Assembly (NCBI GenBank): GCA_965223265.1
Contig: OZ244999.1
Location: 6,048,001 to 6,112,000, forward strand
Source: Planctomycetota bacterium
GTDB lineage: Bacteria > Planctomycetota > UBA8108 > SXIK01
Reading direction: 5' to 3'
DNA length: 64,000 bases
The notes under the pieces are model-generated. The model worked only from the letters and a program-made list of their open reading frames with translations. It made no database searches and had not been told where the DNA came from. Position 1 is the stretch's first letter, and each line of letters opens with the position of its first letter. This document shows positions 52,932 to 60,482 of this stretch, piece after piece. The position numbers and the translations under genes were made by a program.

Positions 52932-53657
52932 ATGTCACGTACGAAAGACAATCGTTTGAGTCACCTGCGTGGATCATGTTCCGGCCGCCGCTGCTTTGTC
53001 TTGGGGAACGGACGGAGCCTAAGCGAAACTGACCTCCGAAAGCTCAAAGGTGAGGTCACGATCGGGTGCAATGGTTTGTACCTCCTCTTTGATCGGATGG
53101 GTTATACGCCAACATTTTACATGGTCGGAGATCCCCTGGTCGCGCGGCAAAGTGCACCGAAAGTCTGTAACATCCGTGACTCCACGAAGGTTTTTCCGTT
53201 GGATCTTCGGGATTGGCTTGCTCCGGATCGAAACACTGTTTATTTCGAAGTTGACCGAAGTCAGAAGCAGCCATTCCGATTTAGCGATGACCTTGGCGAG
53301 GTTGGCTATTGGGGGGGCTGTGTTCTTTACTTCGCGCTCCAACTTGCCTGGTATATTGGCTGCCGCGATGTGTACTTGGTCGGAGTCGATCAGGACTACC
53401 GTTTACCGCCTCGGGCGCAGTTTGAGGGCGTTTTACGTCTCGACACGGATGACCCATGCAATCATTTCGATCCGAACTATCTCGAGCGATGTTGTATTCG
53501 GGAGTACCATCTCCCAAGAGTTGACTTGATGGCGAGAGGGTTCGAACAGGCCAGAGAGTTCTACGATTCGCATGGCGGCAGGATTTCGAACGCAACCGTC
53601 GGTGGAAAGCTCGAGGTTTTTTCTCGGGTGTCCTTTGAGGGGTTGTTCCAATCATGA
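52932..53657 (+). CDS. DUF115/Maf-like (sialyltransferase-fold) protein
   Basis: RCFVLGNGRSL, TIGCN, ALQLAWYIGC..VYLVGVD, NHF, NAT.GGKLEVF. Confidence 0.8.
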   Translation: MSRTKDNRLSHLRGSCSGRRCFVLGNGRSLSETDLRKLKGEVTIGCNGLYLLFDRMGYTPTFYMVGDPLVARQSAPKVCNIRDSTKVFPLDLRDWLAPDRNTVYFEVDRSQKQPFRFSDDLGEVGYWGGCVLYFALQLAWYIGCRDVYLVGVDQDYRLPPRAQFEGVLRLDTDDPCNHFDPNYLERCCIREYHLPRVDLMARGFEQAREFYDSHGGRISNATVGGKLEVFSRVSFEGLFQS

Positions 53658-54689: not shown

Positions 54690-55428
54690 AAACCTTCGAG
54701 GACCTCGGCGCTTCGGCCCTCACCAGCCCAGATCACCCGTCCACGATCGTGGTCGACAACTATCGTCAGGTACCGATGCCTCTTTCGGTAGCTGAACTCG
54801 TCGACTCCGATGCGACGCAGATCCTCGAGACGCTCGGGATCGAGTCGCGCAGCGACAATACGCTCGACGATCGCCCCTACCGTAACCCACGAGATTCCCA
54901 TCAGCTTGGCGACCTTCGTCTTGTCGGTGCCTTGCGCCAGGTAGGCGACCATCTCCTCGAAGTCGCGGGTGAAGCGGCTTTGGGGCGTCGCCCACGGCAC
55001 TTCCTCGACGCGCACGCCACAGCGAGGGCAATCAACGCGCTGTGGCGCGTAGGAAAGCAAGATTGAGTAGCGCCCGAGTGCGAGGTGCCGCCACTTGCGC
55101 GCTGGCTTCCTGTCATAGCCTGGCGCCTGTTTGCTGCAGCCGCTGCAGCGCGGCAAGCGCCAGCGGGACTGAACATGAACCACGAGGCCATCGAATGCGA
55201 AGTCGACGTTCTTAACGAGGAGTTTGGTGACACCGAGAAGCTTTCGCAATACGGTGGTAACGCGCACGGGTTCTTGCCTCCTGTAGTCGTGGAAAACCAC
55301 AGAAAAGCAGGAACTTCGTGCGCGTTTCCACCTCCAAGGGGCAGGAGTGGGCGGCCAAGCGGCCGCGAGCGCCAACTCCTGGCGCTCGATGGCTCCGTCA
55401 GGTCACCCACTCTGACTTTAGGAGAGCC
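54690..55428 (-). mobile_element. truncated ISL3 copy
   Basis: Near-identical to 25853-~26590 including the end GGCTCTCCTAAAGT; 3' half missing. Confidence 0.9.
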
Positions 55429-56054
55429 GAAATTGGCTGGCCCCTACCGCAGGGGGTTGACGATGGAGAGCTCGAGAAGCTCCTCTTCGTTCGCAGGGAA
55501 GAGCAGCGCAGGGGGCGCCCGCTTCCCGATTGGTCCCACATTCATACCGAGCTCAGGCGGAAGCATGTCACCTTGATGCTCCTATGGCAGGAGTACAAGG
55601 CCGAACATATAGATGGCTACCAGTACAGCCAGTTCTGCGAGCTCTATCGCGCCTGGCGCGGCAAGCTCTCCGTGTGGATGCGCCAGGTACATCGTGGCGG
55701 GGAGAAGCTCTTTGTCGACTACTCTGGAGACGGCATCGAGTGGATCGATCCGAAGACCGGCGAGGTCCACGAGGCACAACTCTTCGTCGCCGTCTTCGGC
55801 GCCTCCAACTTCACCTATGCCGAGGTGACGCACAGGCAGCAACTGCGTGACTGGGTCAGTGCTCAAGTCAACGCCCTGAAGTATTTCGAGGGAGTGCCGG
55901 AGGTTGTCGTTCCGGACCCTGCAGTCAACCGCATCTGTCGATACGACCCGGAGACCAATCCGACCTACGCGGAGTTCGCTCGCCACTACCAGACGTGCAT
56001 CCTGCCGGCCCGCCCCCGAAAACCGCGTGACAAGGAGTACGCTTCATACTGCAC

Positions 56055-58130
56055 CTATTCCCTTCTTTGCGTGGCAGGTTTTCTCGCCGCCGCTCGGTTC
56101 GGGCGGCATTTCCACTTGTACTTCTGCGGACGATCATCTCCGAGAGGTTCGTAGAGGTAGTCGTTTCGGTCGTTGTAGGCGTGAGCTTGCAGGAGTCCAC
56201 GGCGACGCCAAGTCTTGACGGTGCAACGTGAGACATCGAGCTCTTGGGCGACCTCCTCCTGAGTGAGCATGCCGGCTTCTCGCAGGCGATCATAGCGGGG
56301 CTTGAGCTCGTAGTCCATCCGGAGCCGCCGTACCATGAGGCGGTCGAAGGAAAGCCCTTCGCCAGAACGATGTCCAGCGGCGTTCAGTTTGGCGGCGATC
56401 TGTACGTCGGTGTAGTTGTCGAGAAGCCGATCGATTTCCGCGATGACCTGCGGATGGGTCTGGCGTCGCTGCCAAGCCGGAATGGGGCGAGGCAGTGTGA
56501 AGGTGCGTAGCGCGCCGCCGCGGAACCGCACCTTCACTGCGATCGCCTCTTCCTTGCGGAGCGTCACGTCCTCGAGCAATAGACGCACCATGCGTTTTCG
56601 TTCCCTCGCCGGTGTTTTCGGATCATTCCATAGCCGGGGGATATCGGTAGCGAGCTCGAGGATGCGAGCGTGTTCTTCCTTGTTGAGGATGACTCGATCT
56701 GCTTCTCTCTCGCGTTCGTACTCTGCCTCCGCCTCGCGCTGAGTCCGGAGCTTCCGATTCCAATCCGCTTCGAGTTCGTCAGCGACCAGACGGTTGTCGG
56801 GGTCTACCTGCAAGTAGCGACGACGAGCGAGTTCCGTTTCGTAGCGAGCCCGCTCCACCTGCTGAGATCGCAGCCGATCGGCCTCGTCGAGGCGCGCCTG
56901 GATCTCTTCCTGGACAGCGAGCGTTACCTCGAGTGCCATGGGACTCACGGCCTCGATCAGAAGAGTGCCGATCGCCTCGTCGATGCTTGCTCCGGGAACG
57001 CATTGACACGACGGCGTAGCCTTCCGGATTCCCTCGCGTTGACACATATAGACGGGCTGGAGCTGACCGCGGTTTCTCTCATAGCGTACCGTCATACGTT
57101 TACCACAGACCCCGCAGACTACGAGCCCTTGCAGGAGTGCCGGGCCTTCGCGCGGAGGGCTGCGTTTGCGGTCGTCGCCGTGAGCGCGCGCATTCTCCGT
57201 GAGGCGCCTCTGGTTCTCTTCGAATTCCTCTATTGGGATATATCCAGGATGCGCACCGGGTACGAAGGCCGTCCATTCTTCGCGCGGCAATAGACGATAG
57301 CGCTGACCGGTGACATCCGGAAGTTTCCGTTGACGCATGCGACCGTAGAAGAAGACTCCGGCGTAGCGAGGATTGTGCAAGACATGCAGTACCAGAGAGT
57401 GATCGAGTTCGGCCCAGAGGATCTCTCCTTTGCTTGGTCCTGTCCGTGCCTTTCGTGGGAAGCGAAGTCCCTTCTCGCGGAACGCTTTCACCGTCGCTGT
57501 TGCTGAGCCGACTCGACGAAAGGTACGGAATAGCATCTGTATTGCGTCCCGCACCTGTCGGTCGGGGTGGAGCACGACTCGTCCTTCGGTATCGTAAATA
57601 AATCCTATGGGCAGCTTCGAACGGAGCTCTCCCCGACGAGCCTTGTTGATGATCCCTCCCTGCAACCTGGCCTTCAGAACATGCAGCTCAGCCTCACTCA
57701 TCGTCCCCTTCAGTCCCAAGAGAAGACGGTCGTTGAAGTGGGCCGGATCATAGATCCCGTCCTCATCGAGGATCAGAGTGTCCGTTAGGGCACAGATCTC
57801 AAGCAGTCGGTGCCAGTCGCTGGAGTTGCGAGCTAGACGCGAAACTTCCAGCCCCATGACGATCCCTGCGCGACCAAGACCGACCTCCGTCACCAACATC
57901 TGAAAGCCCTCTCGTTCGGTCGACGAGGCACCTGACTGCCCAAGATCGCTGTCGATGACGACGACCCGCTCGGCAGGCCAGCCGAGGGCTAGCGCGCGCT
58001 GCTTCAAGTCGTACTGTCTTTTTGTGCTCTCGGTGTTCTCGAACACCTGCCGTAGCGTTGACTGACGAATGTAGAGGTATGCATTGCGAGCAAGATGCCG
58101 TGAGTCAACCTTCTGGTGGGCTTCGTTCAT
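56055..58130 (-). CDS. large serine recombinase (resolvase, recombinase, Zn ribbon, HTH)
   Basis: YLYIRQST (catalytic Ser), SRLARN, NPRYAG, LLQGLVVCGVCG, VDPDNRLVA. Confidence 0.95.
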   Translation of the reverse strand: MNEAHQKVDSRHLARNAYLYIRQSTLRQVFENTESTKRQYDLKQRALALGWPAERVVVIDSDLGQSGASSTEREGFQMLVTEVGLGRAGIVMGLEVSRLARNSSDWHRLLEICALTDTLILDEDGIYDPAHFNDRLLLGLKGTMSEAELHVLKARLQGGIINKARRGELRSKLPIGFIYDTEGRVVLHPDRQVRDAIQMLFRTFRRVGSATATVKAFREKGLRFPRKARTGPSKGEILWAELDHSLVLHVLHNPRYAGVFFYGRMRQRKLPDVTGQRYRLLPREEWTAFVPGAHPGYIPIEEFEENQRRLTENARAHGDDRKRSPPREGPALLQGLVVCGVCGKRMTVRYERNRGQLQPVYMCQREGIRKATPSCQCVPGASIDEAIGTLLIEAVSPMALEVTLAVQEEIQARLDEADRLRSQQVERARYETELARRRYLQVDPDNRLVADELEADWNRKLRTQREAEAEYEREREADRVILNKEEHARILELATDIPRLWNDPKTPARERKRMVRLLLEDVTLRKEEAIAVKVRFRGGALRTFTLPRPIPAWQRRQTHPQVIAEIDRLLDNYTDVQIAAKLNAAGHRSGEGLSFDRLMVRRLRMDYELKPRYDRLREAGMLTQEEVAQELDVSRCTVKTWRRRGLLQAHAYNDRNDYLYEPLGDDRPQKYKWKCRPNRAAARKPATQRRE

Positions 58131-58438
58131 GTGATGTCTCCAGCTTTTTCCCGCTCCAGCGCCATCCCCGCCAACACCACAACCACGTCCGAGCCGAGCG
58201 CACGGGGGATCACCGCCGCGGAGGAACGACCTGGCTGGGGTTCAATCGAGGAGGCACCGAGAAACTCAGTCCAAGCCTGCATCCAGGCCGCCATCCCACG
58301 GTGGACGAAGAGTGCGTACGCGTGTCTTCGAGAAGAACTGCCGCCTGCTGCCAGTGCGCCGCGCCGTAGCTCTTCGTATCGTGCCATAGACTCCCCCGGC
58401 TCTGAGTTCGAAGTGGCCGAGGAAGTCGCAGTAGTCAC
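58127..58438 (-). CDS. small accessory protein of the LSR element
   Basis: GTG overlaps the HTH stop and its stop overlaps the LSR ATG; RYEELR...GMAAW. Confidence 0.65.
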   Translation of the reverse strand: MTTATSSATSNSEPGESMARYEELRRGALAAGGSSSRRHAYALFVHRGMAAWMQAWTEFLGASSIEPQPGRSSAAVIPRALGSDVVVVLAGMALEREKAGDIT

Positions 58439-58902
58439 TGCCGTTTTTTTTTCCGGCGCCTGAGCGCCCGTTGAACGCTGCGAGGGTGAACTTTGATATC
58501 GAACCGCTCTTCGATACGTGTTGCTAGCTGGGACGGTGAAAGAGAGCTGTCCTCTGTGAGAGCACTCTCGGCGAAGTCGAGCACGTCGTCTTTGAGTTTG
58601 TGCCGGCTGCGTGGTCCTCGTTTTCGCGGCACGAGACCAGGTATCCCGTCGCGTGCAAGCGCGGCCTGAGCGGCATAGAACGCTGGCCGGGAGAACCCGA
58701 ACGACTTGGCACAGTCGCTGACTGACGCCCCCTCGATCTGAGCCCGTCGAAGCATCTCGTACTTGACCTGAACCAGGTCCCGAGGGTCGAAGAACTCGTC
58801 GTCGGTGAAGAGGGGGTCGGTGACTTTCTCCGGCTGGCGATTGAGCGCCTGGTGCTCGAGGAGATGGGTCTCCTTTGGATCCTTCGGTTTTCGCGGGCTC
58901 AT
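58435..58902 (-). CDS. HTH protein of the LSR element
   Basis: FFDPRDLVQVKYEMLR, FGFSRPAFY, GL.P.KRGP, VHPRSVQRAL; GGAGG RBS. Confidence 0.8.
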   Translation of the reverse strand: MSPRKPKDPKETHLLEHQALNRQPEKVTDPLFTDDEFFDPRDLVQVKYEMLRRAQIEGASVSDCAKSFGFSRPAFYAAQAALARDGIPGLVPRKRGPRSRHKLKDDVLDFAESALTEDSSLSPSQLATRIEERFDIKVHPRSVQRALRRRKKKRQ

Positions 58903-58929
58903 GCAGACCTCCAGGTGACACCGAGAAGT

Positions 58930-58968
58930 ATGTAATATAAATTACATCCCTAATCGCCTCGGTGTCAA
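58930..58968 (-). promoter_or_regulatory. sigma70-like promoter with overlapping palindromic operator
   Basis: TTGACA (58968-58963), TAATTT 18 nt downstream; palindrome ATGTAAT-ataa-ATTACAT at 58930-58947. Confidence 0.6.
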
Positions 58969-59019
58969 GGTTCATTCTCGGAACGCCAAGGCCTATAAAT
59001 AATTGGGTATTAGGCAAGC

Positions 59020-59400
59020 TTACCCCTGCTCACCCTGCCCATCTTTCGGGACGTATTTTACTTTACCTTCATGGACGTCTTTTCCTTTACACTCTCCATC
59101 CTTCTCGGAACGATCGCTTCCCTCCACGTTCGTCACCAGCTCTACAAGGCGCAGGAGGTCGGCGACCCTGAAGAAGGCGCGGCCGGCAGAGACGACCACG
59201 AATGGATCCTCGGCACAAATGCTCGTCCAGCTCGCCGGCAGGCGCCGAAGACTCCCGTGATCGTCGTGGAAGTAGACTCGCTCCTCGCCCCAAACCTTGC
59301 CCAGCTCGACCAGCACGAACTCCCGTCCACAAAGCGGGTGAAAGGGGTGAGTGACTCGGAAAAGCTGCTTCGCATCTTTTCCGTCGACGGCATTCGACAA
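59020..59400 (-). CDS. DUF5372 (Y4bD/Y4pK-like) protein body, lacking an ATG in the integrated state
   Basis: VTHPFHPL.G.EF, WGEERV, LPASWT, DPF...SAGR..FRV.DLL.L. Confidence 0.75.
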   Translation of the reverse strand: MSNAVDGKDAKQLFRVTHPFHPLCGREFVLVELGKVWGEERVYFHDDHGSLRRLPASWTSICAEDPFVVVSAGRAFFRVADLLRLVELVTNVEGSDRSEKDGECKGKDVHEGKVKYVPKDGQGEQG

Positions 59401-60252
59401 CTTCTTCCAAGGCGAAGGTCGAGTCCGGCGTGCTCATCGCGCAACGCTGGATCATTGCCGTCGTCAGGAATCGCACCTTTCATTCCCTCGATGAAGTCAA
59501 CGAGGCGGTCGCTGAGTGTGTCGAGAAGATCAACGATCGTACAATGCGGCGCGTCGACAAGTCGCGTCGCGAACTCTATCTCGAAGTCGACAAACCAAAC
59601 CTGAGCCCTCTTCCCGAAACTCGTTTCGAGTTTTCCGACTGGAAGATCAAGGCCCGAGTGAATCTCGACTACCACGTTGTCTTCGAGAAAAACTACTACT
59701 CCGTCCCGTATCAGCACACGCACCAACATGTCGACATTCGAGCAACGACGGCGACGGTCGAAATCTTCCTTACACAGAAGAGAATCGCCAGCCACGAGCG
59801 AATCGCTGGAAAGCATCGCTACTCGACCAAGGCGGAGCACATGCCTCGCTCCCACCGACAGCACGCCAAGTGGTCGCCTTCACGCCTGATCCGCTGGGGT
59901 GAGACAGTGGGGCCATCAACGGCAACGCTCGTCGAGGCAATTCTCAATGAGAGACCGCATCCTGAGCAGGGCTACCGTGCGTGTCTGGGCATCTTGCGGC
60001 TCGGAAAGGAGCATAGGGCGACCCCTCCTGAGCCCCCGCCGGGGTCGCTCCGGTGCCGCTTTGCGACACCTCCCCACCGCGGCGACCCCACCCTGCCAGA
60101 CTTCGATCAGCGGCGTGCAACACTTGATCAATCCGATCACCTCGAGTACAAACCCTTCAGCCCAGCGTCACCCTCGGGCGGCTGATCGGAATCCTCCGGA
60201 ACAGGTGGTCGAAATCGATCGAAATGGGTGGCCGCTTTCGCTGGAATGCGCA

Positions 60253-60482
60253 CGCAGGGGGTTCTAACCCTCAGTGAGGATGACCCTTGCAACCACTTTG
60301 ACGCGAACTATTTTGAGCGATGCTCCCTCAACGAGTACAATCGCCCAAGGTTAGACCTCATGACGAAGGGGTTTGAGAAGGCCAAGGAGTTTTACGGCGT
60401 TCGTGGTGGGACGATACGTAACGCGACTGTCGGTGGAAAACTTGAGGTCTCTCCTCCGGTGTCTTTTGATAGCTTGTTTTGA
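60253..60482 (+). pseudogene. 3' fragment of a DUF115/Maf-like paralog
   Basis: DDPCNHFD.NY.ERC...NATVGGKLEV is closely similar to the C-terminus of 52932-53657. Confidence 0.8.

Follow-up and report, generated by a model that had tools for sequence, protein, structure and literature searches.

A large serine recombinase element whose attachment site may split the gene of a predicted recombinase partner

Introduction

In the transposons Tn4451 and Tn4453, the joint of the two element ends is said, after work by Lyras and Rood in 2000, to form a promoter for the gene of the recombinase TnpX. We analyzed a 3.4-kb element in a 64,000-nucleotide (nt) stretch of a Planctomycetota genome (contig OZ244999.1, positions 6,048,001 to 6,112,000; the window). 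It resembles Tn4451/Tn4453 as a small large serine recombinase (LSR) transposon with a putative non-replicating circle whose joined ends would alter expression. The joint differs in what it would provide, i.e., a ribosome site, a start and four codons of a separate gene, DUF5372, for a predicted recombinase partner. Moreover, a presumed promoter region lies upstream of the recombinase gene whether the element is integrated or free, and no −35/−10 pair is split across the ends, the joint lying inside a reading frame directly behind the LSR stop. A promoter and terminator scan called no promoter-like site at either element end. We consider it probable that integration cuts DUF5372 from its start, that excision mends it and that the joined gene is made from the circle only.

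Integration of mycobacteriophage BPs reportedly removes the 3′ end of its repressor gene, which gives a shorter, active repressor and changes the stability of the protein. For BPs and relatives, the part of PMC4557955 available to us describes an attachment site, attP, inside the repressor gene and integration-dependent immunity. As there, attP would lie inside a coding sequence of our element, with different products encoded by integrated and free forms. BPs, however, is a phage that loses the 3′ end of a repressor gene, whereas here the 5′ end of DUF5372 in a four-gene transposon is concerned, and its loss should prevent translation; the element contains no phage genes, and the cut gene is not its helix-turn-helix (HTH) gene. 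Circle-specific promoters, i.e., Pcirc of ICEclc and P3'end of ICEKp1, provide another likeness, since a signal at one end acts on the gene at the opposite end only after circularization; in contrast to our element, it is integrase transcription that changes, and the accessible part of the source describes no split open reading frame (ORF) (PMC13023037).

How serine recombinase elements other than phages choose between leaving and entering DNA is poorly understood, and to our knowledge the known directionality factors are mutually unrelated and hard to find. In the present element, synthesis of a candidate cofactor appears physically tied to the state of the element, as the recombination site would cut and mend its gene. 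With four small genes and two short sites, directionality control is directly testable here, and the system could give a matched recombinase-cofactor pair for genome engineering. The initial annotation of this DNA had known of no description of the split-ORF logic for the family. Our literature search, which did not cover subscription journals and supplements, agreed with this: it found no mention of DUF5372, nothing relevant on y4bD, and no account of an att site by which a recombinase cofactor gene is cut off from its start codon and ribosome site.

Results and discussion

Candidate halves of one gene at opposite ends of the element

The LSR element spans window positions 56034–59410, with the minus-strand gene order DUF5372, HTH, ORF2 and LSR. 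Its host gene is an IS21-type istA that is cut into 55318–56033 and 59411–60185, the protein halves meeting as ...P-R-K-P-R-D-K / A-K-V-E-S-G... across the insertion. The following features were assigned.

55318–56033, plus strand: 5′ part of istA including the central AA, an ORF with a weak Pfam rve match over residues 152–236
56032–56033, no strand: central dinucleotide AA of the LSR-side junction, from which inward the two identical copies agree
56034–56047, minus strand: putative split-gene stub, ATG (56047–56045), AAG CGT ACT and CC, reading M-K-R-T-P together with the first crossover T
56048–56055, minus strand: 8-mer GGTGCAGT, outer motif of the att arm and Shine-Dalgarno (SD)-like, abutting the ATG block (0 nt) and 14 nt away from the crossover
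56055–58130, minus strand: LSR of 691 residues with Resolvase, Recombinase and zinc-ribbon domains, coiled coil and C-terminal HTH
58127–58387, minus strand: ORF2, about 86 residues from ATG 58387, its stop overlapping the LSR start (ATGA), without family match
58435–58902, minus strand: HTH protein of 155 residues, first gene of the operon, matching Pfam HTH_32, HTH_28 and HTH_29
58903–59019, minus strand: A+T-rich gap of 117 nt with a TTGACA box and a 7-bp inverted repeat, read by eye
59020–59409, minus strand: DUF5372 body (PF17342) from the W codon at 59409–59407 to the stop, without ATG
59387–59394, minus strand: AATGCCGT, degenerate counterpart of the arm 8-mer, 14 nt from the crossover in the DUF5372 leader codons N-A-V
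59409–59410, no strand: central dinucleotide AA of the DUF5372-side junction, where copy identity stops (59410) and contig loose ends lie
59411–60185, plus strand: 3′ part of istA with the Mu-transposase C-terminal domain (Pfam PF22483, E 5.6e-21)

The ends were defined by a second copy of the element in the same genome, which was surveyed as one 9.18-Mb contig. This copy is 100% identical and sits inside a different, distantly related IS21-type istA at the same K codon (...N-E-K/G-R-V-E...). Outside a stretch that begins with AAGG at one end and finishes with CCAA at the other, the two copies differ, which places the exchange at the dinucleotide AA (56032-33 and 59409-10). A two-base exchange flanked by imperfect inverted repeats of about 22–25 bp is expected for a serine recombinase; here the dinucleotide is equal at both junctions, and inverted 8-mers lie at 14 nt on either side. 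The CAAGG that the initial annotation took as the core is present at 56031–56035 and 59408–59412, with the exchange point at AA and not at the whole pentamer.

The LSR ORF stops with TAG, the last G of which is the first base of GGTGCAGT, and the ATG at 56047–56045 follows. In the integrated state this ATG opens a frame of merely 40 codons into istA antisense DNA. At the other end, the frame of DUF5372 is closed by a stop 11 codons ahead of the P-W codons, contains no ATG and offers TTG 59400 as its only start-like codon. By coordinates, the ATG frame and the DUF5372 frame are phase-matched at the core, for which a single join has a chance of 1/3. Hereby the core of the initial annotation stands, i.e., an SD-like motif and ATG behind the LSR stop, an ATG that runs into istA antisense when integrated, a DUF5372 ORF without ATG and with TTG 59400 as first possible start, and ends that join in frame. 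Two further points carry a qualification. DUF5372 does lie upstream of the sole sizeable intergenic stretch, said to contain the only obvious promoter, while a consensus scan of 58903–59019 called no minus-strand promoter, the promoter type of the organism not being identified. GGTG does precede the ATG like a ribosome-binding site, while it doubles as the inverted-repeat motif of the att arm.

We propose that attP lies inside the 5′ end of the fourth gene of the element, DUF5372, with GGTGCAGT or its complement in each arm, 14 nt from a 2-nt crossover. Integration, here at the K codon of a K-x-K-V-E motif in the IS21-type transposase gene, would separate the LSR-side arm (SD-like GGTG, ATG and three codons) from the DUF5372 leader and body. 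The integrated element would then express HTH, ORF2 and LSR from an internal promoter, and DUF5372 would be left upstream of this promoter without a start. Excision would join the arms and make DUF5372 the last, translationally coupled gene of the operon, i.e., a circle-only product. Such a split gene is well supported by the comparative anatomy of its relatives and by one natural joined molecule.

Relatives of the split gene

The DUF5372 body matches PF17342 with E 4.8e-22 and 78.2 bits (cut-off 25) over profile positions 1–76 of 78, and the profile begins 19 residues inside the element boundary. NCBI labels one matching protein 'Y4bD/Y4pK family'. A scan of species-representative genomes gave at least 473 confirmed DUF5372 stretches, and 133 plasmid records carry the family as well, which points to DUF5372 as a conserved, widespread candidate cofactor. 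Among the carriers are rhizobia that have the element on symbiotic plasmids. The best 80 of the genome loci represent Pseudomonadota, Acidobacteriota, Actinomycetota, Planctomycetota, Gemmatimonadota, Spirochaetota, Myxococcota and others. DUF5372 is conserved at about 50–60% identity across at least 10 phyla, despite the absence of its own start, and the order DUF5372, HTH, ORF2, LSR is the rule. For family counts we used these best 80 loci, which together with our two own copies make up a set of 82.

Among 231 DUF5372 matches in a large protein collection, N-termini differ wildly and the alignment begins at P-W, i.e., at the element boundary. We attribute the differing extensions to gene callers guessing a start; database N-termini would be arbitrary because the true start lies 3.4 kb away. 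Alternatively, DUF5372 could be translated in the integrated state by read-through from the antisense strand of the target transposase gene. The long, unrelated N-terminal extensions of the database proteins would fit this, as would a frame that stays open for a variable distance into many flanks (median about 25 codons). We nevertheless find it very improbable: among the 74 loci with flanks of at least 60 nt, the flank up to the next stop is free of in-frame starts in 56, and none of the 74 has an ATG with an SD-like motif. Where in-frame flank starts occur, they take no preferred position, and the extensions differ in every locus, as expected from guessed starts.

Start codons inside the element bear on another alternative, in which only the att arms are conserved, the in-frame join is an inherited accident and DUF5372 is made from weak starts of the integrated state, such as TTG 59400 or a GTG at the V codon of V-T-H-P-F-H-P. 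Between crossover and domain, 78 loci could be read. In none of them is there an in-frame ATG, and 44 have no ATG, GTG or TTG at all; start-like codons found there were the V-codon GTG (25 loci), other GTG (11) and TTG (11). When followed from the upstream stop to the domain, 28 of 74 loci have no start anywhere. The V codon is GTG in 22 of 73 sequences and a non-start (GTC, GTA, GTT, ATC, ATA) in 51, and most relatives have P, S or Q at the position of TTG 59400. Of the 25 V-codon GTGs, 2 follow an SD-like motif, as does a start in 1 of the 19 loci with other internal starts, compared with a background rate of 0.16. Also, integrated DUF5372 lies upstream of the sole intergenic region of the element. 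These counts argue against internal starts, and we regard conservation of the arms alone as unlikely.

The start codon was found instead at the LSR-side arm. The LSR 3′ region is present in 56 of the 82 loci, two of which stop there at a contig edge, leaving 54 evaluable. In 51 of these, a start codon (36 ATG, 15 GTG) comes after the arm motif, always equally far from the crossover, in the layout GGTGCAGT, ATG/GTG, nine bases, two bases (mostly CC) and central dinucleotide. GGTGCAGT matches in at least 7 of 8 positions in all 51 except L036; the automatic scan alone gave 45 of 55 loci. This arm finder misplaced 5 of 81 rows, namely L050, L063 and L078 along with the two own copies; the arm of the latter is degenerate and was placed by reading the sequence. 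The 51 arms represent 39 distinct 24-nt sequences and 32 distinct stubs of five residues. In most cases the block immediately follows the LSR stop. In others it overlaps the C-terminal codons of the LSR, E-V-Q-C/Y-E-A, and its start is then GTG from the codon TGT or ATG from TAT. It follows the stop by 13–34 nt in L014, L039, L062, L073 and L077, and by 200–580 nt in L031, L046, L057 and L061.

According to the initial annotation, a frame across attP that is random among homologues, or homologues with an internal ATG and ribosome site, would speak against the split gene; most of its tests turned out in favor of its reading. Stub and body join in frame and free of stops in all 50 loci for which both ends were available, and each of these loci carries one and the same central dinucleotide at its two junctions (47 TT, 2 AT, 1 CT). 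On a quick IQ-TREE phylogeny of the LSR, which held 43 of the 51 loci, the start switched between ATG and GTG at least six times, four of these forced by well-supported branches, and never to a non-start. The eight remaining LSRs were split into several matches, contained a stop or were matched over fewer than 500 residues. The distance from arm motif to domain is 45 nt in 68 loci, 42 in six and 51 in two. As it changes only in multiples of 3, the DUF5372 leader seems to be read as codons from upstream, which is a further point against conservation of the arms alone.

A joined form in a metagenome contig

We searched for the joined site with a degenerate pattern. It matched none of 87 integrated or other loci and two metagenome contigs; viral contigs gave no match to the attP pattern. 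One of the two contigs, L088, was rejected as a chance match, as it contains neither LSR nor DUF5372. The other, L089 (2689 nt), carries a complete LSR of 701 residues ending ...D-E-V-Q-Y-E-A. Here GAGGTGCAGT-ATG overlaps the LSR stop and opens an uninterrupted DUF5372 ORF, M-K-P-D-P-W-L-K-L-S-T-T...I-T-H-P-F-H-P... Behind DUF5372, where our element has its intergenic stretch, follow a TTGACA-17 nt-CATAAT box and a new ATG. From its position and the promoter-like box read by eye, the next gene is probably the HTH gene; the tail of 268 nt after the DUF5372 stop had no tblastx or blastn match to the other loci. As the ends share merely about six bases, the joint of L089 needs reads across it.

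For the source organism, Logan contigs of four runs (X1–X4, one study and at most two samples) were compared with 55500–59950. None listed the joined attP; such contigs drop rare forms, and their lack of a joint is therefore uninformative on circles. No RNA data set was among the listed holders of this DNA. The circles foreseen in the initial annotation may have a counterpart in L089, which contains LSR, ATG and DUF5372 in this order, and have none in the source contigs.

Predicted contact between DUF5372 and the recombinase

The LSR has the domains of a large serine recombinase, i.e., a resolvase domain with active serine, a recombinase domain, a zinc ribbon and a coiled coil. Pfam matches are PF00239 (17–168), PF07508 (196–313) and PF13408 (332–387), and the sequence itself reads as helical between about residue 394 and about residue 520. 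The catalytic motif R22-Q23-S24 and Cys 339, 342, 363 and 375 are invariant in 32 aligned sequences. The best NCBIfam match is XisF with 85.5 bits, and the LSR is not a member of this family (cut-off 375); with XisF of the fdxN element it shares being the LSR of a chromosomal element.

DUF5372 was modeled as a four-stranded small barrel with a long helix and a disordered leader (predicted local distance difference test, pLDDT, 76), and fold matches were weak. The predicted complex with the LSR scored 0.73, compared with 0.01 for the best of three controls. Among solved complexes 58 of 80 reached this mark, as did 2 of 110 mismatched pairs; with our own alignments, these counts apply only approximately. 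Three runs agreed in at least 66% of contacts, with partner pLDDT of at least 63. Predicted LSR contacts are 338–343 in the zinc ribbon, 394–413 and 480–518 in the foot helices of the coiled coil, and 523–541. On DUF5372, residues 22–27 and 70–100 are involved, and in the model an added strand lies next to the sheet of the domain where DUF5372 79–82 meets LSR 535–541. From these models, DUF5372 would bind the LSR where the coiled coil leaves the zinc-ribbon domain.

Verified directionality factors bind at the junction of DBD2 (zinc-ribbon) and coiled coil, often adding a strand to a sheet, according to the part of PMC12286644 available to us. A role of DUF5372 as directionality or integration factor would fit its predicted interface at this site. 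Like the recombination directionality factors (RDFs) of SPbeta and of LI integrase, as far as that source describes them, DUF5372 is a small, fast-evolving protein encoded next to the recombinase, with a predicted contact at DBD2 and the coiled-coil foot (PMC12286644). In contrast to the known factors, which have no common fold, DUF5372 is a Pfam family that crosses phyla. Its gene is cut by attP, and its direction of action may be the opposite.

We propose that DUF5372, bound at the coiled-coil/zinc-ribbon site, would tell the recombinase the state of the element. The direction we prefer is a bias of the LSR towards inserting the circle again, which DUF5372 could bring about by itself or by pushing aside an excision factor, e.g., ORF2. 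This preference comes from the order of events, because a classical excision factor that appears only once the circle exists, along with the LSR, would prevent the re-integration on which a non-replicating circle depends. ORF2 is the obvious candidate for an excision helper, as it is conserved, forms three helices and has no known role. The bias towards re-integration is the least certain step of our proposal, and DUF5372 may instead drive excision. We only tentatively consider attP a state sensor, in which the integrated element would provide LSR and a helper (ORF2 or HTH) and the circle would add DUF5372, which as an 'anti-directionality' or integration factor would occupy the coiled-coil hinge and flip the enzyme to integration. 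Insertion would cut its gene anew, and such a two-state toggle would make a serine recombinase element genuinely cut-and-paste. The same tentative toggle would also cover the family in its at least 10 phyla, aimed at catalytic-motif codons of transposases of other elements.

If DUF5372 drives excision, the gene could still be split, with its product a classical directionality factor that stimulates attL × attR and blocks attP × attB. Leaky synthesis would then trigger a first excision, followed by a burst from the circle that excises sister copies and holds circles out until shut-off. The predicted contact at the junction used by verified factors would suit this scheme, as do the several identical copies per genome found here and in at least eight other genomes, and a later shut-off could come from the HTH protein that is encoded first in the operon. 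Nevertheless, we regard the scheme as rather unlikely. Translated from the circle alongside the LSR, the factor would inhibit the very integration that is needed there, and a 3.4-kb circle that does not replicate would be lost. Most relatives lack the start codon on which the first excision would rely, and with conserved ORF2 there is a free candidate for the excision factor.

Arguments against the split gene

A number of points weigh against a split gene whose product signals the circular state. GGTGCAGT is first of all the outer motif of the att arm, presumably read by the zinc-ribbon domain. The DUF5372-side arm carries the complement of this 8-mer (TC[AG]-A-N-T-GCA-CC), also 14 nt from the crossover, in the leader codons S-N/T-A-P. 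As GGTG is thus part of an inverted repeat, its conservation by itself is no proof of ribosome binding and could, perhaps along with that of the adjacent RTG, follow from LSR binding alone. The geometry of the arms fixes the frame, so that the 50 in-frame joins count essentially as one inherited event. All this would fit conservation of the arms alone, as would relatives that could start DUF5372 by themselves from a V-codon GTG (25 of 78) or another internal GTG or TTG (19 of 78). In our element, a purine-rich GGAAGAAG precedes TTG 59400, and some translation in the integrated state is possible.

Furthermore, 3 of the 54 evaluable loci have no usable arm. None was found in L038 and L067. L063 does have an arm with GTG, but its stub contains a TAA, there are additional bases, and its LSR is frameshifted. 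The joined form is represented by one contig, and a head-to-tail tandem would give the same junction. The interface with the LSR comes from models only, and 4 of 11 predicted factors in the accessible part of PMC12286644 proved false positives when tested. The direction of action is ambiguous, with the classical excision-factor role disfavored by the logic of the switch.

Symmetry of the arms leaves one feature aside. Directly after the 8-mer, the LSR-side arm reads R-T-G, while the other arm reads Y-G-A. As the other arm has YGA, the start codon is not explained by symmetry, which again speaks against conservation of the arms alone.

Mobility of the element

In the contigs of the four runs, the element showed up as a piece of 3379 nt that was covered about twice as deeply as the flanking sequence, and loose ends beginning at 59410/59411 entered the second site. 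A third junction was found on a 57-nt contig of run X2 (depth 5), which leads from 59411 into gaggaca-AA-gacagcc, i.e., with the same AA break. Its target at G000:C1:1213152 (L087 about 1499) is a long kinase/TPR-like ORF and not a transposase gene. The junction occurred in one of three runs of the sample, and its partner junction was not seen. This weak signal, one contig of one run, suggests that the element moved in part of the X2 culture. In run X3, single contigs left the element at 56442, 58588 and 59302 into unrelated sequence; they may stem from related elements of other organisms or from rearranged copies.

Target sites

In 32 of 75 flanks, K-x-[KR]-[VIL]-E is encoded on the target strand directly after the crossover, and most others encode N-x-x-x-E-[RS]. 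Both motifs resemble what we take to be the region of the third acidic residue of rve-type DDE transposases. The family seems to aim at catalytic-motif codons in transposase genes of other elements, and one plasmid copy overlaps an annotated 'IS3 family transposase'. L037 and L060, with AT core, lie before M-E-S-T-A/G-x-Y-W, and L020, L025 and L041 before K-R-Q-V-W-Q-R-D-G-G-R. L025 is a near-copy of L020 and L041 from Spirochaetia and has CT instead of TT at both junctions, which fits a mutation of attP before insertion or an insertion at a CT site.

Several LSR genes of the family are themselves interrupted by about 2.7–3.8 kb of foreign DNA (L023, L024, L038, L040, L047 and L069, nested elements), and the insert of L069 carries another LSR on the opposite strand. 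A second LSR with 27–38% identity lies about 0.9–1.8 kb upstream of DUF5372 on the same strand in L044 (2840–4618), L067 (3222–5126) and L075 (3270–4247). These second LSRs may be neighboring serine-recombinase elements in one hot spot.

Accessory genes and neighboring DNA

In 66 loci, an ORF was called that reaches up to the LSR start. ORF2 has the conserved motifs RYExLR, GMAAWM and LAxMxLA, and its three-helix model (pLDDT 72.6, predicted template modeling score 0.34) was too uncertain for a fold search. The HTH gene is kept in nearly all loci. Below the NCBIfam cut-offs, its protein resembles IS630 and IS481 transposases in their N-terminal DNA-binding part (39.5 and 38 bits, profile positions 2–109), a curious resemblance in an element that itself inserts into transposase genes. 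The gap at 58903–59019, downstream of DUF5372, is the presumed promoter and operator of the HTH-ORF2-LSR operon.

Outside the element, about 130 nt at 55300–55430 of the window recur at three other places of the genome with 90–95% identity, one of them at G000:C1:6073849 and within the range of the window. This repeat is probably an end of an IS21-type element or a related repeat. Two ORFs on the plus strand, 52932–53657 and 60228–60482, flank the mobile stretch and have very similar ends (DDPCNHFD-NY-ERC...NATVGGKLEV...). This likeness may reflect paralogy, or duplication of a gene end on both sides of the insertion cluster.

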